Source: Candidatus Fermentibacteraceae bacterium (GTDB taxonomy: Bacteria > Fermentibacterota > Fermentibacteria > Fermentibacterales > JCC-6). Taken from it: a stretch of 28,494 nt of DNA. Positions 1 through 24,000 of this stretch are shown in pieces. The stretch is taken from positions 1 through 28,494 of the forward strand of contig JAWLEP010000032.1 of assembly GCA_041686025.1 (NCBI GenBank), given 5' to 3'. Numbering within the stretch: the stretch's first letter is position 1; each line of letters opens with the position of its first letter. The notes beneath the pieces are model-generated. The model was given only the letters and a program-made list of their open reading frames with translations. It was not told the DNA's origin and searched no databases. Position numbers and translations under genes: made by a program.

Positions 1-92
1 TTCGGGCAGCGCTCCCGCAGGCTTCGCCGGCTGACTCAGTAGGCTCCGAACCCTAACCGTCCATCCGGCAAAGACAAAGGCCGGGGCGGGTA

Positions 93-121
93 TTGTCCGC
101 AACAGAACCTGTGGGTAGAGT
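93..121 (+). promoter_or_regulatory. Putative sigma70-type promoter for the split-AOR/Nuo-like operon
   Basis: TTGTCC (93-98), 17-nt spacer, TAGAGT (116-121), in an AT-richer patch about 70 nt upstream of the first start codon. Confidence 0.45.
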
Positions 122-191
122 AATATACTGACAATCAGCGATGAGCCGGCCGAGGTGAAGCCGTCTGCTTCAAGAGAACCGGGGGATGCGC

Positions 192-977
192 ATGGCCGAG
201 ACAAAGAAGGCCCTGGACATATTGAAGGCCCAGAAGGTGCTGGGGGAGTTCAGCTACGAGCCCGCAAGGGCCGAGAAGGGGTACACGGGGGAGATACTCA
301 GGGTGGACCTCTCGGAGCCCTCCTTCAGGATCGTGCCCGTAACCGACCGGATGAAGGATCTGTTCGTTGGGGGACGGGGGTTCGACCTGCTGATGGCCTG
401 GCAGGAGGTCACTGCCAGGACCAAGTGGGACAGCCCCGAGAACCCAATCTGCATAGCGTCGGGTCCGCTGGGAGGCACCACCTCCTTCCCGGGGGCCGGG
501 AACACCGCAATCGCGACCATATCCCCGGCCACCGGATCCGTGGTCGATTCCAGCACCGGCGGTCACTTCGGGCCGCTGCTGAAGTTCGCCGGCTTCGACG
601 GGCTGGTCTTAGTGGGCCAGGCCGAAGCGGACGTCATCGTCAGCATAGACGGCGTGGCCGGACTGGTGACTCTGGAGGAGAGCCCGCTTCTGTCCATCGA
701 TACTCACCTGGCGGTGCGTGAGCTCTCCGAAATGTATACAGAAGAAGGCGAAGAGCGACACCCCCTCTCCACCGTAACCGCAGGAAGGGGCGCTGAGAAC
801 AGCTGGATGGGCTGCCTGAACCTCTCCTGGTGGGACCCGGGACGAAGAACCATGCGCGTCCGTCAGGGAGGCCGCGGCGGCGCCGGCACCGTATTCCGCC
901 GCAAGGGCCTGAAGGCCCTGGTGGTGAAGGCTCCCCGCACCGCTCCCGAGCTCGTCCTGGAGGGGGAGGGTGATTAG
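192..977 (+). CDS. Aldehyde:ferredoxin oxidoreductase (AOR/WOR family), N-terminal domain only
   Basis: AFOR_N motifs GYTGEILRVDLS, FVGGRGF, SPENPI..SGPLGG, SPATG..DSSTGGHFGPLLKFAGFDGL and GRGGAGTVF.RKGLKALVV. The ORF stops right after domain 1. ATG 192 chosen from the GGGGGA RBS (alternative ATG 186). Confidence 0.9.
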   Translation: MAETKKALDILKAQKVLGEFSYEPARAEKGYTGEILRVDLSEPSFRIVPVTDRMKDLFVGGRGFDLLMAWQEVTARTKWDSPENPICIASGPLGGTTSFPGAGNTAIATISPATGSVVDSSTGGHFGPLLKFAGFDGLVLVGQAEADVIVSIDGVAGLVTLEESPLLSIDTHLAVRELSEMYTEEGEERHPLSTVTAGRGAENSWMGCLNLSWWDPGRRTMRVRQGGRGGAGTVFRRKGLKALVVKAPRTAPELVLEGEGD

Positions 978-1434
978 TGTGGAGAGCAGGGACATGGTCG
1001 ACAGAATCGTCGAAAGGTGGGGCCACGACCCCGAGTACGTCACGGAGATGCTGCAGGACATTCAGGATGAGTACCGCTGCATACCCCGGGAGTCCCTGGA
1101 CAGAGTGGCCCGGCTGACGGGGGTTCCCGTGGGAAGGCTCCTCCACCTGGCAACTTTCTACTCCAGCCTGAGCCTCGACCCCAGGGGTGAGCATCGGATA
1201 CAGGTGTGCATGGGCAGCTCCTGCTTCCTGGCGGGAGCACCGGAGCTGATTGGTGCCCTGGAGAGGGCGCTGGGCATCGAAGAGGGGGAGACCACGGAAG
1301 ACGGGCGATTCTCCCTGCAGCGGGTGAGGTGCCTGGGCTGCTGCGGGACCGGACCCGCAGTGGCGGTAAACGGCGAGGTTGTTGGATCCGTGAGACCATC
1401 GGAGGTCGAAGACCTCCTGGCGCGTTTCCAGTAG
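970..1434 (+). CDS. NuoE/HydC-like [2Fe-2S] thioredoxin-fold subunit
   Basis: LQDIQDEYRCIP, ATFYSSLSLDPRGEH, CMGSSC...CLGCC. The GTG start overlaps the end of the upstream gene. Confidence 0.92.
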   Translation: MISVESRDMVDRIVERWGHDPEYVTEMLQDIQDEYRCIPRESLDRVARLTGVPVGRLLHLATFYSSLSLDPRGEHRIQVCMGSSCFLAGAPELIGALERALGIEEGETTEDGRFSLQRVRCLGCCGTGPAVAVNGEVVGSVRPSEVEDLLARFQ

Positions 1435-1450
1435 GAAGGGGCTTGCGATC

Positions 1451-3319
1451 ATGACGCTGGAGGAGCTGAAGGATCTGCAGGAAAAGGCCCGGAAGCGGCG
1501 CCAGGGCTACGAGAAGGTAATCCTGGTCTGTACGGGCTCGGCCTGTGCCGCCAGGGGCTCTTCAGACCTGGAGGACAGGCTGGAGGGCGAGCTGATAAAG
1601 AGGGACCTCTCCAGCGACTGCCTGGTGGTGGCCGGCGGCTGTCTGGGGCTGTGCTCCGAGGGGCCGCTGCTGTTGATACAGCCGGACGGCATTCTCTACA
1701 CCAGAGTGGCCGAGGACGACCTGAGGGACATCATCTCCCAGCACCTGCAGGACGGCAAGCCGGTGGAGAGGCTGATGTACCGAAGCGGCGAGAAGATATG
1801 TCCCCGGATGGAGGACATCGCGTTCTTCGGCCGCCAGCAGCCGGTGGTCCTGGAGAACCGGACCTTCTCCAACCCAGAGAGCCTGGACGACTACCTGGCC
1901 GCGGGAGGATACAGGGCCCTGGCCAGGGCCCTTGCGGACATGTCCCGCGAGGAGGTGGCGGATGCCGTGGCAGCCTCGGGCCTGCGGGGCCGGGGGGGCC
2001 AGGACGTCCCCACCGGCATGAAATGGCGCAGGTGCCATGAGGCAGCCGGAGAGGCCGGGGAGATTCCCTTCATCGTCTGCAACGCCGACGACAGCGATCC
2101 CGGCGGGTTCAAGGACGCCAGGATTGTCGAATCCGACCCCCATGCGCTCCTGGAGGGCCTTCTTATCGGGGCCTACGCCATCGGAGCCCGGGAGGGCTTC
2201 GTCTACATCCGCGGGGAGTATCCGCTGGCGCTGAAGAGGCTCGGCCGGGCCATCGAGCAGGCCAGGGACAGGAACCTCCTGGGCGAGAACATTCTGCAGA
2301 CGGGATTCAGCTTCGACGTGCTGGTGCGCAGGGGAGCGGGGGCATTCGTCTGCGGCGAGTCCTCGGCCCTGCTGGCCGCCCTGGCGGGTCTGCCGCCGGA
2401 GGCCCACGACCTGTACGTAGACCCCACGGAGAGGGGCTTCCGGGGAAGGCCCACGGTGATAAACAACGTCGAGACCCTGGCCAACGTACCCAGGATACTG
2501 GACAGGGGACCGGATTGGTTCGCATCCATCGGCGCCGGCGAGGTCTCGGGGGATTCCGTCTCCGGCAGCACCGGAACCAGGGTGCTGGGCGTCTCGGGAG
2601 ACGCGGCCAACACCGGCCTGGTGGAGGTGCCCATGGGCACCCGGCTGCGGGAGCTGGTCTTCGACGTGGCCGGAGGCGCAGCCGGTAACGCGGGGCTCAA
2701 GGCGGTCCAGGTGGGAGGACCCACCGGGGCAGTGCTGCCCGAGAGCGGTCTGGACATCGAGCTGGAGGCCGATGCCCTTGCGGGGGCGGGAGTCTCCCTG
2801 GGCTCGGGGATGGTGACCGTGATGGACCGGGACACCTGCATGGTGCGATACGCCCGGTACTGCACGGACCTGCTTCTGGAGGAATCCTGCGGCAAGTGCG
2901 CCCCCTGTCGCGAAGGCCTGGCGGCCATGTCCGCCATACTGGGCAGGATCACCGGCGGCGCCGGCAGCACCGAGGACCTGGGCCTCCTGGAGGAGCTGGG
3001 CAGCACCATGAGCGAGTGCAGCATCTGCGGGCTGGGCAGGCGGGCGGCGGTTCCGGTGCTGAGCACCATGCGCAGCTTCCCCGAGGAGTACGCGGCCCAC
3101 ATCGATGAGGGCCGCTGTCCGGCAGGGCAGTGCACCGAGCTGATCCGTTTCGAGATCGAGGAGGGAAAATGCACCGGCTGCACCGCCTGCGCAGAGGTCT
3201 GTCCCACGGACGCCATCTCCGGTGAGCCCGGTGAGACCCACGTAATCGACGATCAAGCATGTATCCGCTGCGGAATGTGCAGGGATGTCTGCAGGTTCGA
3301 CGCCGTGGAGGTGCGCTGA
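1451..3319 (+). CDS. NuoF/HydB-like flavoprotein (N-terminal 2Fe-2S, FMN/NAD(P) domain, SLBB, 4Fe-4S, C-terminal 2x[4Fe-4S])
   Basis: CTGSAC...CLGLC; SGLRGRGG; CNAD..DPG; GAGAFVCGE; INNVETLAN; GGPTG; ESCGKCAPCREG...CGLG; H...CPAGQC; CTGCTACAEVCP; CIRCGMCRDVC. Confidence 0.95.
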   Translation: MTLEELKDLQEKARKRRQGYEKVILVCTGSACAARGSSDLEDRLEGELIKRDLSSDCLVVAGGCLGLCSEGPLLLIQPDGILYTRVAEDDLRDIISQHLQDGKPVERLMYRSGEKICPRMEDIAFFGRQQPVVLENRTFSNPESLDDYLAAGGYRALARALADMSREEVADAVAASGLRGRGGQDVPTGMKWRRCHEAAGEAGEIPFIVCNADDSDPGGFKDARIVESDPHALLEGLLIGAYAIGAREGFVYIRGEYPLALKRLGRAIEQARDRNLLGENILQTGFSFDVLVRRGAGAFVCGESSALLAALAGLPPEAHDLYVDPTERGFRGRPTVINNVETLANVPRILDRGPDWFASIGAGEVSGDSVSGSTGTRVLGVSGDAANTGLVEVPMGTRLRELVFDVAGGAAGNAGLKAVQVGGPTGAVLPESGLDIELEADALAGAGVSLGSGMVTVMDRDTCMVRYARYCTDLLLEESCGKCAPCREGLAAMSAILGRITGGAGSTEDLGLLEELGSTMSECSICGLGRRAAVPVLSTMRSFPEEYAAHIDEGRCPAGQCTELIRFEIEEGKCTGCTACAEVCPTDAISGEPGETHVIDDQACIRCGMCRDVCRFDAVEVR

Positions 3320-5274
3320 TGGCCAGGCGAACGATGTGCAAGGTGGAGATAGACGGCAGAGAGGTGGAGGTCCCCCGCGGGGCCACCGTCATGGAGGCGG
3401 CCCGCAGGGCGGGAATCGGCATACCCGCGCTCTGCAGCGAAGAGCTGGCGGAGCCCTACGGCGCCTGCAGGCTGTGCATGGTGGACGCCGATGACGGCGG
3501 CGGCAGGCGGCTGGTGGCGGCATGCACCTTCCCTGTCCGGGGGGACATGAAGGTGGAGACCTCCTCGGAGCGGGCGGTATCCCACCGCAGGATGGTCACG
3601 GAGATGCTTCTGGCCCGGTGGCCCGAAGCGGAGGCCCTGTTGGAGCTGGCCCGCTCCCAGGGACTGGAGGCCCCGCGGTTCGAGAATCCCCGGGAGGACC
3701 GCAGCCCCCACCCCTGCATCCTCTGCGGGCTTTGCGTCAATGTATGCAGGGACCTGGTGGGCCGCAGCGCCATCCACTTCTCCGGCCGCGGCGCACACCG
3801 GAAGCTGGAGCTGCCGGCGGCGGGGGACGACATCTGCACCGGATGTGGAGTATGCGTTGCGGTCTGTCCAACCGGCGCCCTTGCTCTCCGAAACGATCCC
3901 AACAACCCCCATGATGGAGAGACTGTACGCCGGGCGGGCATGGAGATCACCCGGGAGATCGCCCGCTCCCGCGGCAGACAGTCGCGGCTGCGGGAAGCAG
4001 GGACCGTACACCTCGCCGGCAGCATGAACCGCAGCGGGAGGCTTCCGGTGATGAACCACCGCATGGGCTCCCACGAGGATGCGGCCGGAATCTCGGCCGA
4101 TGCCTTCGAAGGGAAATTCGACGCCGGGATGCCCGACGACTGCTGGCTGGGATGCACGCTCTCCTGCCGCAAGGGTGTCTCCGGCTTCATGCCGAAGACC
4201 GGTCCGTACAAGGGGGACGAGGTCCTGGTGGAGGGGCCGGACTACCGCGCCGCGGCAGGGGCGGCGAACATGGGCGTGTTCGACCCGGAGTTCGTCATGG
4301 AGTACAGCTTCTACTGCACCACCTACGCCATCGACGTCATCTCCTTCTCCGCCTCCGCCGCCTTCGCCATGGAGTGCTTCGAGGAGGGCATACTGGACGC
4401 CGAGAGCACCGGGGGGATGGAGCTTCACTTCGGGGACGCCGACGCCGCCCTGGACCTGCTGCACGCCACCGCCGGGTCCAGGGGCTTCGGGCGGATAGCG
4501 GGCAAGGGCATCCGCTTCATGAAGTTCTACTTCGAGGAGCACTACGGCGCCGACCCGGCCTTCCTGGACGACATCGGCATGGAGTGCAGGGGCCTGGAGT
4601 ACCCCCAGTGCTGCACCGCCGAGTCTCCGGCCCTGCAGGCGGCCTGCGGGGCCGCCTCCGGAGGCTACCTGCAGGACGGTGACTGGCCCCTCATGGCCGG
4701 CCTTGGCGAGGAAGCCGGACAGGACCCCGAGGCGCTGGCGCAAGCCGTCCACAGCAGCCAGCTCTGGGCCAGCTGGTTCGGTCTGGCCGGCCTCTGCGCC
4801 CTGCCATGGACCTCCATGGACCCGGAGAGGGCCCCGGAGCGGGTGGAGAGCTACAGCAGCCTCTTCGAGGCGGTAACCGGCAGGGAGGTCTCTCCGGTGG
4901 ATCTTCTGAAGATGTCAGAGAGGGTCCACAACTTCCGCCGGGTCTTCGACCTGCGCATGGGCCACGGCACCCGGGAAGAGGACAGGGTGCCCTATCGGGC
5001 ACAGGGTCCGGCCACGGAGTCCGAGTACGAGTCCCGCAGTGACCGCTACGACCGCCAGCTGAAGGATGAAGCCGGCATCGATCCCGCCGGCATGTCCACC
5101 GCCGAGAGGCTGGCGGCGCTGAGGAAGCACAGGGAGGAGCTATACTCCGATCTTCTATCCGCCCTGTACAGGCTGAGGGGTTGGAACGGGAAGGGGGAGC
5201 CCACCGCCGGGAAGCTGATCAGGCTGGGCATCGACTTCCCCGAGGTCCTGGACGTTGTAAAGCCCGGCGGCTGA
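3319..5274 (+). CDS. Fusion of a NuoG/HydA-N-like FeS module ([2Fe-2S] + 2x[4Fe-4S]) with AOR/WOR C-terminal domains 2-3
   Basis: ATG 3319 overlaps the upstream TGA (TGATG). N-part: IDGREVEV, IPALC..YGACRLCMV..LVAAC, CILCGLCVNVC, CTGCGVCVAVCPTGAL. C-part: AGTVHL, LPVMNH, CWLGCTLSC, EGPDY, AFAMECFEEG, GLAGLCALPW, LYRLRGWNGKGEPT (AFOR_C). Confidence 0.9.
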   Translation: MARRTMCKVEIDGREVEVPRGATVMEAARRAGIGIPALCSEELAEPYGACRLCMVDADDGGGRRLVAACTFPVRGDMKVETSSERAVSHRRMVTEMLLARWPEAEALLELARSQGLEAPRFENPREDRSPHPCILCGLCVNVCRDLVGRSAIHFSGRGAHRKLELPAAGDDICTGCGVCVAVCPTGALALRNDPNNPHDGETVRRAGMEITREIARSRGRQSRLREAGTVHLAGSMNRSGRLPVMNHRMGSHEDAAGISADAFEGKFDAGMPDDCWLGCTLSCRKGVSGFMPKTGPYKGDEVLVEGPDYRAAAGAANMGVFDPEFVMEYSFYCTTYAIDVISFSASAAFAMECFEEGILDAESTGGMELHFGDADAALDLLHATAGSRGFGRIAGKGIRFMKFYFEEHYGADPAFLDDIGMECRGLEYPQCCTAESPALQAACGAASGGYLQDGDWPLMAGLGEEAGQDPEALAQAVHSSQLWASWFGLAGLCALPWTSMDPERAPERVESYSSLFEAVTGREVSPVDLLKMSERVHNFRRVFDLRMGHGTREEDRVPYRAQGPATESEYESRSDRYDRQLKDEAGIDPAGMSTAERLAALRKHREELYSDLLSALYRLRGWNGKGEPTAGKLIRLGIDFPEVLDVVKPGG

Positions 5275-5305
5275 CCTACACGGCCGCCTCTCGACGGAGG
5301 TTGAA

Positions 5306-6400
5306 ATGAGAGTCTGTCTTCTCCTGGCGGCGCTGGCCGCCGCGGCCGCCCCCTGCTACGAGGTGGTGGACGCATCCCGCATAGACCCCTACTCCCCCGA
5401 CGAAGGGGACTTCCTGACGGTTGACCTCCCCAGGCTGGAGAGGCAGGCCCGGGAGGCCTACCTCGCCGGCGATTTCGAGGAGGCGGCCCGCTACTACCTG
5501 GCCGCGCTTCGATACGACGTGTCCGATGCGGGCAACATCTACAACCTGGCCTGCTGCTACGGCCTCCTGGGCGAGGCGGAGCTGGCCGCCCGCTACCTGG
5601 CCCTGTCGGTGGAGGCCGGGTTCGCCAACCTGGGCCACATCCAGTGGGACCCGGACCTGGACCCGGTAAGGGAGGACCCGGCGTTCTCGGCAGCCATGGA
5701 CACCCTCTCGACGCAGATACTGACCCGGAGGCGCGAGCTGGGGACGCTACTCTACATGGAGTCGAAGACCCTCCTGCCGTGCCGGGTGCATACACCCCCG
5801 GGATACGACTCCTCCGCCGCGCTGCCGCTGGTGGTGGGACTGCACGGCTACGGCAGCAACCCCGACGACTTCTCCGGCCTGTGGAGCGTGTTCGAGGAGC
5901 CGGAGTTCATCTTCGCCGCCCCCAGGGCCCCCTTCGAGATGGAGGGAGTGGATTTCCGGGGGTACAGCTGGATGATGGGCGAGCCGGGCACCGCGACCTT
6001 CGACAGGGCGGCGCCGGTTGCCGAGGAGTACATACTGGCAGCGGTGGGCGATCTCACAGAGCGCTACCCGGTCTCCAGCGTCTATCTGATGGGGCATTCC
6101 CAGGGCGGGGGCCTCACCTACGAGACAGGCCTCCGCAACCCGGACGTCTTCGACGGGCTGGTGGTGAACGCCGGCTGGCTGGACAGGGAGTGGATCCCCG
6201 ACGAGGTGCTGCAGGCCGCCAGCGGGTTGCCGGTACTCATCATCCACGGAACCAGGGACCGGTCGGTGGAGTTCGAGGCGGCCCTGGAGGCGGAGCGGGT
6301 GCTGGAGGGCTTCGGCTACGACGTTACCCTCTTCGACTTCGAAGGCGCCCACAGGGTGCCGGCGGAGGGCCTGCACACCATGCAGGAGTGGATGGAGTAG
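5306..6400 (+). CDS. Secreted TPR-containing alpha/beta hydrolase (phospholipase/carboxylesterase-like)
   Basis: GGAGG RBS; signal peptide; TPR-like YNLACCYGLLG..A..YLALSVEAGF; LHGYG oxyanion motif; GHSQG nucleophile; HGTRD; GAH. Confidence 0.85.
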   Translation: MRVCLLLAALAAAAAPCYEVVDASRIDPYSPDEGDFLTVDLPRLERQAREAYLAGDFEEAARYYLAALRYDVSDAGNIYNLACCYGLLGEAELAARYLALSVEAGFANLGHIQWDPDLDPVREDPAFSAAMDTLSTQILTRRRELGTLLYMESKTLLPCRVHTPPGYDSSAALPLVVGLHGYGSNPDDFSGLWSVFEEPEFIFAAPRAPFEMEGVDFRGYSWMMGEPGTATFDRAAPVAEEYILAAVGDLTERYPVSSVYLMGHSQGGGLTYETGLRNPDVFDGLVVNAGWLDREWIPDEVLQAASGLPVLIIHGTRDRSVEFEAALEAERVLEGFGYDVTLFDFEGAHRVPAEGLHTMQEWME

Positions 6401-6417
6401 TCCCGGAACCCGGCCCG

Positions 6418-6780
6418 TTACTCCCCGCCGGCCAGCAGCTCCGCCGCGGCGTCCACGTCGATCTCCCCCGCCTCCAGCTTCTGCAGGACCACCATGGGGT
6501 CGGGGCCCGGTGGTCCCTCCTCCAGCGCGGCGAACATCTCCTCCATCCGCTGCCTGGCAGTGGGATAGGATACGCCCAGCTCCCCCTGCACTGCCCGGAC
6601 GTTTCCCCGGGCCCTCAGGAAGGCGTCGAAGATCCTCCGGTGCTCCCCGTCCAGCCGGCAGGCGGGACAGAGGTCGAAGTCACCGGTCACCTCCGTTCCG
6701 CAGACCGGGCACTCCAGCCGCACCACCCTCATGGAGGCGCCGCAGGAGGGACATCGCGGAGGTACCCTTCCCTCATCCAT
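6418..6780 (-). CDS. DUF2089 family protein (Zn ribbon + HTH)
   Basis: CPSC...CPVCGTEVTGDF, FLRARGNVRAVQGELGVSYPTARQR, C-terminal L.AGEIDVDAAAELL. Confidence 0.88.
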   Translation of the reverse strand: MDEGRVPPRCPSCGASMRVVRLECPVCGTEVTGDFDLCPACRLDGEHRRIFDAFLRARGNVRAVQGELGVSYPTARQRMEEMFAALEEGPPGPDPMVVLQKLEAGEIDVDAAAELLAGGE

Positions 6781-20164: not shown

Positions 20165-21045
20165 TGACCCCGAAGAGGGTCACCCTCCTGGGCCTGGCCA
20201 CCAACGTGGGCCTGGCGGCGGTAAAGGTATCCGTGGGCCTGCTCACCGGGACCAGGGCGCTGCTGGCCGACGGCCTGCACTCGATCTCGGACCTGGCCAG
20301 CGACGCTGCCGTCCTGCTGGGACTGCGGTTCTCCGGCCGCCCGGCCGACGACGACCACCACTACGGCCACAGGAGGGTGGCCACGCTGGTCTCGCTGGCG
20401 GTGGGCCTCTCGCTTCTGGTCACTGCCGGCTGGATCATCTACGACGCCATTTCCTCCTACGGACAGCCCCACACGATCCAGGTGGGCCTGCTGCCGCTGC
20501 TGGTGGCCATCGGGTCCATGGTTCCCAAGGAGCTTCTCTACCATGTCACCAGGAGGGTGGGCCAGCGGGAGAAGGACCCCTCGGTGGTGGCCAACGCCTG
20601 GCACCACAGGACCGACGCCTTCACCTCCCTGGCCGCGGCCGCCGGAATCGCCGGGGCCACCTTCGGGGGCCGGCGGTGGGCCTTCCTGGACCGGTTCACC
20701 GCCGCCCTGCTGGCGGCCTTTCTGGCCGTCACCGCCGTCAAGCTGGTCCGGGACGCCGTATGCGAGCTCATAGACCGGGCCCCGGGGCGGGAGATGGTTC
20801 GGCGGATAGGAGATGCAATAGATTCCGTACCGGGCGTCCGCACCTCGCACAGGCTGCGGGTCCGGCAGATGGCCGGCTCGCTGACGCTGGACGTCCACAT
20901 TCTGGTGGACCCGGAGCTGTCCGTAGCCCAGGGACACAACATCGCCACCGCCGTCCAGGAGAAGGTCGATGAGTGCGAATGTGACATACTGGAAGCGGTG
21001 GTGCACGTGGAGCCGGACGACGAAGAGAACAGGTCGGAAGAGTAG
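20164..21045 (+). CDS. Cation diffusion facilitator (FieF/CDF) transporter
   Basis: ADGLHSISD, PADDDHHYGHRR, NAWHHRTD, DVHILVD, GHNIA, VHVEP. TGATG translational coupling. Confidence 0.95.
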   Translation: MTPKRVTLLGLATNVGLAAVKVSVGLLTGTRALLADGLHSISDLASDAAVLLGLRFSGRPADDDHHYGHRRVATLVSLAVGLSLLVTAGWIIYDAISSYGQPHTIQVGLLPLLVAIGSMVPKELLYHVTRRVGQREKDPSVVANAWHHRTDAFTSLAAAAGIAGATFGGRRWAFLDRFTAALLAAFLAVTAVKLVRDAVCELIDRAPGREMVRRIGDAIDSVPGVRTSHRLRVRQMAGSLTLDVHILVDPELSVAQGHNIATAVQEKVDECECDILEAVVHVEPDDEENRSEE

Positions 21046-21067
21046 ACTCCCTAACGAAAGGGGCACG

Positions 21068-21886
21068 ATGGGCAGCGCGATATACTGGTTCAGCGGAACC
21101 GGCAACTCCCTCCATGCCGCGGAGGGGATCGCGGAAGCCCTTGGCGACACCCGCCTGGAGCCCATGGCCCGGGCCGTAAGGGCGGGTCGGGTTCGCCCCG
21201 GGGAGGAACGCGTAGGCCTGGTCTTCCCCATGTACTTCGAGGGACTGCCAGAGATAGTCGAGCGGTTTTGCGAGAGGCTGGAGGTGCGCGAACGCTGCTA
21301 TCTCTTCGGCGTTATCACCAGCGGGGGAGGCCCGGCCTGGGCCGTCCACTCGCTCCGAAAGGAGCTGGACGGAAGGCTCGATGCCGGCTTCATGCTGCCC
21401 ATGGTGGGCAACTACGTACCGATGTACGATGTCCCCGATGCCGAAGGCGTCCGGAAGAAGCTGGCAAAGACAGCACAGAGGCTGAAGCAGATCTCGGGGG
21501 ACGTAGAGGACCGCCGGGAGGGCTTCCGGGGGGACACCCCCGTTCTGGGCTGGCTGCTGGACCGGGCGCTGCATCCCGGATGGCGCCGGCAGGTCCACGT
21601 CCGCGACAGGAACTTCAGGGTCACGGAGGCCTGCACCTCATGCGGCACCTGCCAGTCGGTATGTCCCGTGGACAACATACTCCTGGAGGATGGCGCGCCC
21701 GTCTGGCACCATCTCTGCCAGGAGTGCATGGCGTGCCTGCACTGGTGCCCGGAGCGGGCAATAGAGTACGGGGGGAAGACCGCAGACCGGGGCAGGTACA
21801 CGCACCCGGACGTAGAGCTGCAGGATATGCTGGCGCAGTCGCGGGCAGCCGGCGGCCGGGACCCTTCGGAGGGGAAAAAGGGGTAG
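21068..21886 (+). CDS. EFR1-family flavodoxin-like/2x[4Fe-4S] ferredoxin protein (copy 1)
   Basis: IYWFSGTGNS, GLVFPMY, MVGNY, CTSCGTCQSVCP, CQECMACLHWCP, RYTHP. Confidence 0.9.
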   Translation: MGSAIYWFSGTGNSLHAAEGIAEALGDTRLEPMARAVRAGRVRPGEERVGLVFPMYFEGLPEIVERFCERLEVRERCYLFGVITSGGGPAWAVHSLRKELDGRLDAGFMLPMVGNYVPMYDVPDAEGVRKKLAKTAQRLKQISGDVEDRREGFRGDTPVLGWLLDRALHPGWRRQVHVRDRNFRVTEACTSCGTCQSVCPVDNILLEDGAPVWHHLCQECMACLHWCPERAIEYGGKTADRGRYTHPDVELQDMLAQSRAAGGRDPSEGKKG

Positions 21887-21905
21887 AGAGACAAGGAGGA
21901 GGGGA

Positions 21906-22691
21906 ATGGCAACCATCTACTGGTTCTCCGGAACCGGAAACAGCTACCACGCCGCCCGGAGCATAGGAGACAGGATAGGCGACACCAGGCTGGTGAGAAT
22001 CACCGACAGTCTGGCGGACAGCGGGGAGAGGCTGGCCGATGACGTAGTGGGTTTCGTATTCCCCGTCTACGCCGGCGGCATGCCGGTGCTTGCAGCCGAG
22101 CTGCTGGAGCGGGCCTCGATAGAGGCCGACTACCTGTTCTGCGTGGCCACATATGCCGGCAGGTACGGCAACGCTCTGCGCCAGTTCGAGAAGCTGGCCG
22201 CCGATGCGGGGCAGCGCCCGGACGCGCTTTTCGACATCGTGATGCCCACCAATACCAAACTCAGTGTCGAGCCACGGGAGCCCGGCCCCAAGGCCTCGGC
22301 CAAGCTGGAGCAGTCGGAGGCGGCCCTGGAATCCGTGTCGGCCGGCATCCGCGACCGGGTAACACTGCTGGAGGGCAGGAGCGGCGGCCTCTACGGCCTG
22401 CTGACCCGCCTGGTCTACCCCCTCTTCTCCAAGGGGATACGGAAGGCGGACAACGCGTTCGGCGTCACCGACGACTGCACCTCGTGCGGCATATGCGCGA
22501 AGGTCTGCCCCACCTCCGACATCACCATCGAGGAGGCGGGCAGGCCGGTCTGGCACAACCGATGCGAGGGCTGCAACGCCTGCATCAGCTTCTGCCCCGA
22601 GCACGCCATCTACAAGGGCAGAAGGCCGGAGAAGCGCTACGGGTACAGGCACCCCGAGGTAACCGCCGGCTACCTGATCCGAAGCGAGTAA
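21906..22691 (+). CDS. EFR1-family flavodoxin-like/2x[4Fe-4S] ferredoxin protein (copy 2)
   Basis: IYWFSGTGNS, GFVFPVY, MPTN, CTSCGICAKVCP, CEGCNACISFCP, YRHP. Confidence 0.9.
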   Translation: MATIYWFSGTGNSYHAARSIGDRIGDTRLVRITDSLADSGERLADDVVGFVFPVYAGGMPVLAAELLERASIEADYLFCVATYAGRYGNALRQFEKLAADAGQRPDALFDIVMPTNTKLSVEPREPGPKASAKLEQSEAALESVSAGIRDRVTLLEGRSGGLYGLLTRLVYPLFSKGIRKADNAFGVTDDCTSCGICAKVCPTSDITIEEAGRPVWHNRCEGCNACISFCPEHAIYKGRRPEKRYGYRHPEVTAGYLIRSE

Positions 22692-22720
22692 GGGCCTGGG
22701 CATCCTGAGCCAGGAACCAT

Positions 22721-22735
22721 ACCTACTTGGTAGGT
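22721..22735. promoter_or_regulatory. Palindromic operator candidate upstream of the SHOCT gene
   Basis: ACCTAC-ttg-GTAGGT perfect inverted repeat abutting TATATA at 22736. Confidence 0.4.
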
Positions 22736-22778
22736 TATATAGCCAGTGAGACCATGACGGCATTTACGGAGGTGCGGG

Positions 22779-23018
22779 ATGTATCACTGGCACGGAATGG
22801 GTGACATCCCCCTGCTAGGGGGCTTTGGAATGGTAGTCTGGATTGTGCTGCTGGTGGGGCTTGTCTACCTGCTGGCCAGAATGTGGAGCAGGGGTGGTCC
22901 AGGTTCACATTCACCCGGCGGCGACAGCGCCAGGGAGATCGCCAGAAGGCGGTACGCCAGGGGCGAGATCGACCGCCAGGAGTACGAGAGGATACTGGAA
23001 GACCTCGCGAAGAGCTGA
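22779..23018 (+). CDS. Small membrane protein with SHOCT domain
   Basis: GGAGG RBS; His/Met/Gly-rich N-terminus, one TM helix, SAREIARRRYARGEIDRQEYERILEDL. Confidence 0.88.
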   Translation: MYHWHGMGDIPLLGGFGMVVWIVLLVGLVYLLARMWSRGGPGSHSPGGDSAREIARRRYARGEIDRQEYERILEDLAKS

Positions 23019-23135
23019 TTTCCGCTTGTGCAGGAGGGGGCTATGCTCCCCCCCGGAGAACGACCCCGCGGATAACCGCTTATCCCCCATCTATGAGACT
23101 GCGCTGTTCACCGAGTGCGGATACTGCCAGTTTCC

Positions 23136-23164
23136 TTGCGCCGACGTCCGGCGGGGATTAGGGT
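23136..23164 (+). promoter_or_regulatory. Putative sigma70 promoter for the glutaredoxin-FDR pair
   Basis: TTGCGC, 17-nt spacer, TAGGGT. Confidence 0.4.
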
Positions 23165-23212
23165 GGAGGGAGTCCGGGGACAGCTAATGGCCAATCCGAC
23201 TGGAGGTCGTGC

Positions 23213-23500
23213 ATGGACCTGACCCATGTGGAGGGGGAGGACAGGGGCAAGGTAGTGCTCTTCGCCCTCAGCACCTGCGTTTGGTGCCGAAAGACAAGGA
23301 AGCTGCTGGACAGCCTGGGGGTGGAGTACTCCTACGTCTACGTGGACAGGCTAAGCGGAAGCGAGAGAGCCGAGGCCGTAGAGGAGATGAAGAGGCACAA
23401 CCCGGTGGCCAGCTTTCCCACCGTGGTGGTGGACGACGAGAAGGTGGTGTCCGGGCACAACCCCGGCAGGCTCCGGGAAGCACTGGGGGTGGAGGAGTGA
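23213..23500 (+). CDS. Glutaredoxin/NrdH-like redoxin
   Basis: LFALSTCVWCRKT (CxxC), SFPTVVV (cis-Pro), GGAGG RBS. Confidence 0.92.
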   Translation: MDLTHVEGEDRGKVVLFALSTCVWCRKTRKLLDSLGVEYSYVYVDRLSGSERAEAVEEMKRHNPVASFPTVVVDDEKVVSGHNPGRLREALGVEE

Positions 23501-24000
23501 GCGTCGAGGAGAGGGCCGAGAAGCTCTACGACAGGCTGAAGAACCAGGCAGACCAGGGCGGCTACAACCTCAACCCCGACCGGGAGTTCACCATGCAGCT
23601 GATGGAGAGCCTGGTCACCAACATCGACCGCTACGGCTACATGGCCTGCCCCTGCAGGCTGGCCGACGGCGAGAGGCAGAAGGACCTGGACATCATCTGT
23701 CCCTGCGACTACCGCGACGCCGACCTGGTGGAGCACGGGGCCTGCTACTGCGGCCTGTACGTCTCCGACGAGGTCCGCGACGGCGAGCGGGAGCTGGGAG
23801 CGGTTCCGGAGAGGAGGCCGGCCGATCCCTCGCAGAGGCCCCAGAACAGGGATTCCGGCGGCCCCGCGGAGGTCTCCGGCGAGCTGTCGCAGCCGGTGCA
23901 CCGCTGCCGGGTCTGCGGCTACCTCTGCGCCCGGGAGGACCCCCCGGGCAAGTGCCCCATATGCGGCGCTTCAGCCGACCGCTTCGAGAGGTTCATGTAG
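23497..24000 (+). CDS. Ferredoxin:thioredoxin reductase catalytic-type subunit with C-terminal rubredoxin-like domain (FDR-like)
   Basis: GTG 23497 overlaps the Grx stop (GTGA); YGYMACPCRL, IICPCDY, GACYCGLY; C-terminal CRVCGY...CPICGA. Confidence 0.92.
   Translation: MSVEERAEKLYDRLKNQADQGGYNLNPDREFTMQLMESLVTNIDRYGYMACPCRLADGERQKDLDIICPCDYRDADLVEHGACYCGLYVSDEVRDGERELGAVPERRPADPSQRPQNRDSGGPAEVSGELSQPVHRCRVCGYLCAREDPPGKCPICGASADRFERFM

Follow-up and report, generated by a model that had tools for sequence, protein, structure and literature searches.

How can a tungsten oxidoreductase (WOR, AOR family) be built when its gene is divided by the genes of a Bfu cassette, and is it still an enzyme at the locus considered here? 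The question is raised by a 28,494-nucleotide stretch of DNA from Candidatus Fermentibacteraceae bacterium (contig JAWLEP010000032.1, analysed as a whole and referred to below as the window), where four forward-strand genes form an operon, with no gene for the polyferredoxin subunit WorS between them or directly after them in the mapped loci. It was initially proposed, from the sequence of the window alone, that this is a maintained four-subunit WOR–NAD(P)/ferredoxin complex; its layout, conservation, and selection are supported, but a working enzyme in this copy is not.

Gene 1 (192..977) encodes WOR domain 1 alone, as had been predicted: the sole profile matched by its 261-aa product is AFOR_N (residues 33–246, profile positions 1–197 of 199), and the protein ends with a new C-terminal tail. 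Between the two AOR halves lie, again as predicted, a NuoE-like gene encoding BfuC (gene 2, 979..1434, 2Fe-2S_thioredx match) and a NuoF-like gene encoding BfuB of 622 aa (gene 3, 1451..3319, Complex1_51K, NADH_4Fe-4S, and Fer4 matches). The gene 2 frame is readable from GTG 970 (970–1434), but homologs and Shine–Dalgarno spacing make GTG 979 the more likely start. Gene 4 (3319–5274) begins with the BfuA Fe–S domain (3319..3891, Fer2_4 and Fer4) and ends with WOR domains 2–3 (3892..5274, AFOR_C, residues 207–638), so domains 2–3 sit within the BfuA chain while domain 1 is on a separate gene. The close packing of the four genes noted earlier was confirmed: genes 1 and 2 abut or overlap, depending on the choice of the gene 2 start, genes 2 and 3 are spaced by 16 nt, and genes 3 and 4 overlap as TGATG. 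No sigma-70-like promoter was found in window positions 1–6600, and a search for a Moco/Wco riboswitch gave no Rfam match in 11 sources.

The AOR sequence is resumed after the Fe–S module by NDPNNPHD (3892..3915), which matches the linker motif of single-chain homologs and starts 8 residues past the last Fe–S cysteine (C183). Alignment of the halves to full-length WORs reveals the expected clean break, with only about 6–7 linker residues replaced, and the junction position is identical in all split loci inspected. The module itself had been described as NuoG/HydA-N-like; one 2Fe–2S and two 4Fe–4S clusters are indeed present, but the ligands are those of A1, A2, and A4 without A3, resembling WorA instead. 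The domain compares with WorA (9mqx_A) at a TMt of 0.66 and bears neither the zinc finger nor the adaptor helix of that protein. According to predicted structures of gene 4 (pLDDT 82, pTM 0.73) and of a natural N-half::BfuC fusion (pLDDT 86.5, pTM 0.60, with a low-confidence linker), each fused chain is predicted to fold as its two known modules, which is as far as single-chain models go.

Misassembly can be ruled out as the source of this arrangement. Contigs of a DNA run from another study (X3) extend over 1–1672 (1 difference), 2970–3617 (1 difference), and 3825–4843 (4 differences) and bridge the junctions at 1434–1451 and 3319, as well as those at 960–990 and 3880–3920, where a coverage check had been advised; besides, the same layout exists in relatives from the phylum and in other phyla. 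RNA-library contigs (X11, X14, X17) span parts of the operon, and the fusion junction is bridged by one contig from X11 and one from X17, neither of which amounts to a demonstration of transcription. Gene 1 is the sole AFOR_N in this genome, and an intact paralog was not found there.

The four-gene order is widespread among uncultured anaerobes. Among 70 genomes of the phylum, 37 bear the Fe–S::AOR-C fusion in one frame, 19 have a single-chain-type match, one has a frameshifted split copy, and 13 have none. The gene order was verified in 13 relatives and 8 more loci, and the split layout also occurs under other taxon labels (10 of 80 loci of a genome scan); a first scan, queried with the window's own C-half, returned no matches. 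In 65 of the best 120 N-half homologs, the N-half is fused to BfuC, and this repeated natural fusion supports the assignment of the N-half as a putative subunit of the complex. The tail motif P-x-W is present in 53 of the 65 fused and 45 of the 53 standalone forms but in 0 of 97 single-chain proteins; gene 1 of the window has lost the tail Trp common to split forms.

The cassette proteins appear to descend from a single lineage, since in FastTree phylogenies the 24 cassette BfuB rows form one group against 57 other Bfu rows (support 97), as do the 25 cassette BfuA rows against 64 (support 96). The trees of the WOR halves show no clean single split clade, and one clade is not rejected (AU p 0.23). 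The common downstream gene, the lack of a genome clearly carrying both split and single-chain forms (G061 has two extra fragments), and the discordant WOR-half trees suggest that the cassette might have spread by recombination into resident WOR genes, which is left unproven by the AU test.

Among known systems, WorABCSL from Acetomicrobium mobile (Class IV, Type 2 Wor-Bfu; PDB 9MQX; PMC12318220) resembles the locus in having all clusters of BfuC and BfuB, a BfuA domain with A1, A2, and A4 but no A3, a GESSAL-type motif in BfuB (shared with WorB, 9mqx_B), and a WOR catalytic fold feeding A4. It differs in that the counterpart of WorL here is divided between two genes, with domains 2–3 joined to BfuA; WorS, the zinc finger, and the adaptor helix are all missing, and with them the nanowire; the WOR is a member of a remote group of ~720-aa proteins (23% identical to 9mqx_D by structural alignment); and this copy is devoid of the catalytic residues. 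In Type 1 Bfu enzymes (FeFe-HydABC, Nfn-Bfu, Fdh-Bfu, F420-Bfu), the catalytic domain is likewise joined to BfuA behind A4, but the available part of the source (PMC9304861) lists no Type 1 enzyme with a WOR, and here only two-thirds of the catalytic unit share a chain with BfuA while the remainder is encoded separately or attached to BfuC. Single-chain WORs of ~720 aa from this phylum and others (e.g., P0010, G017, and G029) are, in the case of the genome copies, 41–46% identical to the N-half and 39–47% to the C-half; they bear the same motifs and in family f3 precede the same esterase gene; in contrast to the split forms, they consist of one chain with neither an adjoining Bfu cassette nor a P-x-W tail.

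Is the enzymatic apparatus preserved in the window? Over all genes, changes affect 107 of 496 invariant positions, yet all 40 Fe–S/Zn ligands are kept. The BfuBC core ligands (B1–B5, C1) are complete (24/24, comprising 20/20 in BfuB and the four cysteines of the C1 [2Fe–2S] cluster), and the L2 [4Fe–4S] cysteines C275, C279, C283, and C493 are present in 29 of 29 aligned fusions. The C-half is changed at 44 of 135 otherwise invariant positions versus 0–7 in intact-site split relatives. Its GPEYE motif (4240..4248) reads GPDYR, so that the Glu311 equivalent is Asp and the equivalent of the catalytic Glu313 is Arg (residue roles according to the accessible part of PMC12096430); further on (4609..4674), the Tyr427 equivalent is Cys (4609–4611) and the His448 equivalent is Gln (4672–4674). 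Of the second-shell set Thr243/Glu313/Tyr427/His448, which is present in the aligned intact-site split relatives, the window has retained Thr. The N-half is changed at 4 of 46 invariant positions, three of them pterin-contact equivalents, an enrichment with a Fisher p of 0.009 for a provisional contact list; the substitutions at the contact equivalents read K104N (PfAOR Arg76), N121S (Asn93), K224R (Arg182), and A226G (Ala184).

The flavin subunit is affected as well. The nucleotide-binding motifs of BfuB are eroded, and its glycine loop (2000..2008, mapped by motif), equivalent to Gly67/Gly68/Phe70-71 of the NADH site (PMC11677225, as far as the source was available), reads Q-D-V, whereas G-G-F is found in 22 of the 23 intact-site homologs and A-G-F in the remaining one. 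In place of the signatures of bifurcating-type BfuB, Ala/Glu232, Met234, Phe367, and GGPSG (PMC7311640), the window bears Gly, Lys, the retained Phe, and GGPTG (mapped by motif); intact-site relatives bear DPGA[FY]MD (20/23) and GGPSG (23/23). The GES motif was not taken as a sign of NADP specificity, since it is identical in NAD-bound WorB.

Searches for MoaA, MoaC, MoeA, and TupA gave no match in this genome (G000) or in its two closest relatives, G001 and G006 (95, 93, and 95% complete drafts, respectively). G000 is 94.75% complete, and MoaC was found in 30 of the 36 other fusion-bearing genomes; in G002, G003, G005, G022, G056, and G071, a moa operon lies ~5 kb or less downstream of the split operon. 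Drafts can nevertheless miss it (3/34), because MoaC and MoeA gave no matches in the intact-motif genomes G042, G049, and G062 either (96, 80, and 90% complete), and neither did TupA in the intact-site G013, G018, G019, and G022. MoaE is uninformative, with no match in five genomes that include intact-site ones. A PF00994 match in G000 is presumably CinA, and the PF12849 match examined is PstS. With the tungsten second shell, pterin contacts, and NADH loop changed and the pterin genes not found, the initial proposal of a working WOR–NAD(P)/ferredoxin enzyme is not supported for this copy.

The proteins are, however, maintained. The four frames (1,685 codons in total) contain no stop or frameshift, while at least six stops accumulated in 500 of 500 neutral simulations. 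NG86 dN/dS is 0.26–0.42 against L062 and 0.13–0.40 against G001 (dS ~0.7–1.05); in these pairs, the adjacent esterase gene gives 0.23–0.24. Values of 0.13–0.42 indicate purifying selection and, in a widespread layout, are far from the solitary, neutrally drifting locus that would have spoken against the original prediction. Most intact-site pairs have lower values (0.01–0.13), which fits relaxation here, and the GC-rich intact-site pair L075/L080 has 0.14–0.45. Open coupled frames, taken previously as a sign of a maintained system, testify to the protein but not to its chemistry.

The best explanation, which we regard as probable, is that the operon is of a split tungsten-oxidoreductase/Bfu type, with intact relatives predicted to be WorS-less bifurcating enzymes and a copy in the window that persists as a cofactor-less Fe–S relay. 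The intact relatives likely form a WorS-less electron-bifurcating aldehyde oxidoreductase, a Type-1-like Wor-Bfu, because in most of them the full set of tungsten-site and flavin-site motifs, as well as the pterin genes, is retained; no description of such an enzyme was found in the literature searched, by a search that was in part poorly specific. In these relatives, the W-bis-pterin site would be completed by the docking of domain 1, whether standing alone or linked to BfuC, onto domains 2–3 of BfuA. Aldehyde oxidation would feed electrons through L2 directly into A4 and on through A2, A1, and B1/FMN to NAD(P)+ and, via C1 and B3/B4, to ferredoxin; the stoichiometry would be 1:1, without the WorS nanowire. 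In the lineage of the window, the losses may have begun with the pterin pathway and the pterin contacts of domain 1 (G006 already lacks the latter) and continued with the catalytic Glu, Tyr, and His and with the NADH loop, while selection would still act on the fold and Fe–S clusters of the four chains, whose most likely role would be that of an electron relay or buffer at the level of ferredoxin. This role, read from what is kept, is likely because catalytic and NADH-site residues are lost while every Fe–S ligand remains. It is possible, though we put it forward only tentatively, that the class as a whole assembles its W site only when BfuA, with its domains 2–3, meets BfuC, with domain 1 fused or bound to it, and that one lineage is now a selected pterin-free Fe–S complex.

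The main rival, unlikely but deserving serious attention, is slow decay, with the operon useless since the pterin pathway was lost, weakly constrained (e.g., against misfolding), and heading for deletion. A dN/dS several-fold above that of most intact-site pairs, the missing tail Trp, and the 13 phylum genomes without a WOR match are in line with it, as is the stepwise erosion from 10–11 changes in G006/P0007 to 39–49 in G000, G001, P0002, P0003, and P0005, with different substitutions at catalytic positions (the Glu313 equivalent is R or G, the His448 equivalent Q, R, or N). Against decay stand the uninterrupted 1,685 codons at such a dS from G001, the full set of metal ligands, and the N-half dN/dS of 0.13, below that of the esterase gene. 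It is improbable that this copy still functions as a tungsten-dependent aldehyde:NAD(P)/ferredoxin oxidoreductase whose pterin genes were lost only to assembly gaps: the open frames, the complete Fe–S ligands, the retained equivalents of Thr243, Tyr312, Lys76, and Tyr205, the intact-site genomes likewise without moa matches, and the activity of BamB and YdhV without second-shell residues (PMC12096430, accessible part) would agree with this, but the three related genomes without the four cofactor genes are also those in which the pterin contacts have disappeared along with the catalytic residues and NADH loop, and G001 has no moa genes although both flanks are assembled. Least probable of all is that the emptied pterin cavity and altered flavin site bind another substrate or cofactor in an active non-bifurcating oxidoreductase, since, despite changes common to five strongly degenerate C-halves (D305E, E308D, G441A, G442A), a BfuB Lys at the Met234 equivalent (a residue listed for non-bifurcating enzymes), and core FMN motifs largely kept in G000, the differing replacements at catalytic positions do not reveal a new active site in common, model confidence is lowest in the site loops, and the FMN motifs are further damaged in G001.

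The current WOR classification selects WorL/AOR proteins with N- and C-terminal domains in one chain (PMC13328260), a rule from which this locus departs, and the split group was missed because only one-chain proteins were taken. If the relay reading and its intact counterpart are true, no tungsten-linked bifurcating enzyme would be smaller than the WorS-less 1:1 Wor-Bfu, which would also offer a less complicated system for studying the Bfu mechanism, and the natural series would show the function of a Bfu complex after both catalytic ends are lost. This series, from the intact P0008/P0125 and G071 through G006 to G000/G001, makes the retention of a complex after loss of its cofactor pathway testable. 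If these genes are labelled aldehyde:ferredoxin oxidoreductase, the metabolic capacity of the genomes is overstated.

The four-gene operon at 192–5274 is a real, widespread and apparently undescribed variant of the Wor-Bfu enzymes. It lies in a genome (G000) of 2.70 Mb and 94.75% completeness, and the window begins at base 1 of contig C32. The names that its close homologs carry (Ca. Fermentibacteraceae, Aegiribacteria, Sabulitectum) suggest a place in Ca. Fermentibacterota. The predicted identities of all four genes agree with Pfam: gene 1 is WOR domain 1 (the N-half), genes 2 and 3 are BfuC and BfuB, and gene 4 is a BfuA-like Fe-S domain fused to WOR domains 2–3 (the C-half). Compared with single-chain homologs, gene 1 reaches the end of domain 1 and continues into a novel tail, and the linker motif in gene 4 marks the restart of the WOR sequence, 8 residues past the last Fe-S cysteine. 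At the split between domains 1 and 2, about 6–7 residues are replaced; the break maps near residues 205–209 of P. furiosus AOR (alignment to 1AOR, numbering by counting). Misassembly is countered by contigs from another study's run, which bridge every junction. Independent Fe-S::AOR-C fusion proteins are present in the database (P0002, 91% identity; P0003, 88%). A further database protein, P0001, has a C-half with 97% identity to that of the window but combines it with an FG-GAP repeat region; it looks like a chimeric assembly in that record.

The WOR classification, in its accessible part (PMC13328260), has five classes, none split, with members chosen by having both domains. No description of the split layout was found by full-text literature searching or in the available portions of PMC13328260, PMC9304861 (with its text supplement), PMC12318220, PMC12096430, PMC7311640, PMC6560083, PMC11677225, PMC10116835, and PMC5030696; it could be mentioned beyond these, in subscription journals, in figure supplements, or in the datasets behind the WOR classification.

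The same layout has been found in other genomes, both within the phylum and at loci labelled otherwise. The Fe-S::AOR-C fusion is present in one frame in 37/70 phylum genomes, a match of single-chain type in 19 (15 checked as one ORF), a frameshifted split copy in one, and no WOR match at E 1e-60 in 13. Both forms co-occur within two genera, and none of the 70 genomes clearly holds both. A genome scan, run with an alignment of 12 Fe-S domain sequences, gave 596 confirmed matches, and the best 80 of these comprise 16 split loci and 64 Bfu genes without fused WOR halves. Ten of the 16 are unlabelled or, going by bin labels that could be mistaken, lie outside the phylum (Deltaproteobacteria, Eisenbacteria, Thermoplasmatales, Cloacimonadota, Myxococcales, 'Rickettsiales'). 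Among the best 120 of 339 near-length gene 1 homologs, 65 carry a BfuC fusion, 53 are standalone N-halves, and the other 2 are fragmentary; the domain-1 Lys/Asn/Lys/Gln and the tail Trp are kept in all 63 fusions aligned (63/65). The split operon of G061 (L165:5121–10232) has intact motifs together with several frameshifts and a stop, i.e., sequencing errors or a fresh pseudogene.

In FastTree phylogenies of sequences sampled for their similarity to the split A domain, with six duplicate or near-duplicate loci omitted, split-operon BfuB proteins form one group, as do split-operon BfuA proteins; together with the common junction and tail, these groups point to a single origin for the cassette–WOR join. 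Split N-halves also cluster (support 95; FastTree, 255 N-halves), locus L079 excepted. BfuC-fused N-halves are interspersed among standalone ones in this tree, so BfuC fusion seems to have arisen secondarily and more than once. A smaller IQ-TREE run needs 3 changes, as does the C-half tree, where a single split clade was not rejected. The direction from whole to split is taken because the solved WORs matched are single chains. A predicted exported TPR and esterase gene (5306–6400) starts 31 nt past gene 4; it follows the split WOR in G000, G001, and G006, and the esterase gene also lies 3′ of the single-chain WOR in 7/9 genomes of family f3, which suggests that, on one side, the two forms go back to a shared ancestral locus. 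At L079 (2793–4127, labelled Thermoplasmatales), the N-half–BfuC fusion apparently arose separately from that of the main fused group, and several trees place the WOR halves of this locus with single-chain WORs.

Intact-site relatives keep the motifs GKS, DSNVGG, KQAGRGG, GPEYET, CDTYGxDTIS, EYSEY, and QHDEAW and the cysteines of the WOR [4Fe-4S] cluster L2, and most retain bifurcating-type BfuB signatures. Several of their operons adjoin moaA-moaC-moeA, and the split operon of G002 adjoins a tupA-like gene. In WorABCSL, BfuA receives electrons at cluster A4 from the polyferredoxin WorS; in Type 1 Bfu enzymes (PMC9304861), A4 is fed by the fused catalytic domain. The Fe-S::C-half fusion would put L2 beside A4 and so take the place of WorS. 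Among the nearest non-split relatives are BfuA domains that bear other C-terminal cargo, including a glycine-cleavage H-protein domain (L093:5998–7293) and polyferredoxins (L145:4366–6381, L087, and L105). In three loci (L035:4938–6800 of G019, L061:985–2847 of G013, and L071:4139–6001), a different thioredoxin-like domain, without two of the B5 cysteines, stands in place of the BfuB N-terminal domain, which suggests that the cassette has undergone domain exchange.

As read from its sequence, the window's operon is a catalytically hollowed yet maintained member. At positions at least 95–97% invariant in other homologs, it is changed at 4/46 (N-half), 6/38 (BfuC), 44/229 (BfuB), 9/48 (Fe-S domain), and 44/135 (C-half), against 0–1, 0–3, 0–4 (L083: 40), and 0–7 in the N-half, BfuC, BfuB, and C-half of intact-site split operons. 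The equivalents of Arg76, Arg182, and Asp338 are altered. So are those of Glu311, Glu313, Tyr427, His448, and Asn93, sites named in the available text of PMC12096430, and, in BfuB, the NADH-site positions Gly67/Gly68/Phe70-71/Glu95 (mapped by motif; site from the accessible portion of PMC11677225). All 40 Fe-S/Zn ligands are kept. The loss pattern is common to G001, P0002, P0003, P0005, P0121, P0122, and P0127; intermediate copies (G006, P0007, and P0126) have lost the domain-1 pterin contacts and kept the Glu and His. G000, G001, and G006 form one clade (support 99–100). An independent flavin-end loss is seen in the split operon at L083 (663–2486, labelled Cloacimonadota): the C-half is intact (0/135), but BfuB is eroded (40/229) and its NADEGD motif has an 11-residue deletion.

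MoaC, MoeA, MoaA, and TupA gave no hits in G000, G001, and G006, apart from one sub-threshold MoeA match in G006; G000 yielded no ortholog of the G002 moa proteins, and searches of it for xanthine-dehydrogenase-type and molybdopterin-oxidoreductase proteins gave no match. However, MoaC and MoeA were also missed in 3/34 other fusion-bearing genomes with motifs intact.

Between the window and L062 (88% identity), dN/dS for BfuB, Fe-S domain, and C-half is 0.26, 0.42, and 0.28 by NG86 and 0.12, 0.28, and 0.12 by YN00; against G001, NG86 gives 0.13, 0.30, 0.25, 0.40, and 0.33 for the five parts in order. Genes nearby range from 0.04 to 0.24 in these comparisons. Intact-site values are 0.01–0.13 in four pairs and 0.14–0.45 in one GC-rich pair; G022/G016 was partly saturated. 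A crude neutral simulation (0.75 changes/site, 500 runs) yielded a mean of 18 stops and a minimum of 6. On these results, the encoded proteins are maintained, with constraint that is probably somewhat relaxed. A retained Fe-S assembly fits the selection results better than a pseudogene. Elsewhere in the window (20969–24000), there are two 4Fe-4S dicluster genes and a ferredoxin-thioredoxin reductase beta/rubredoxin-like fusion.
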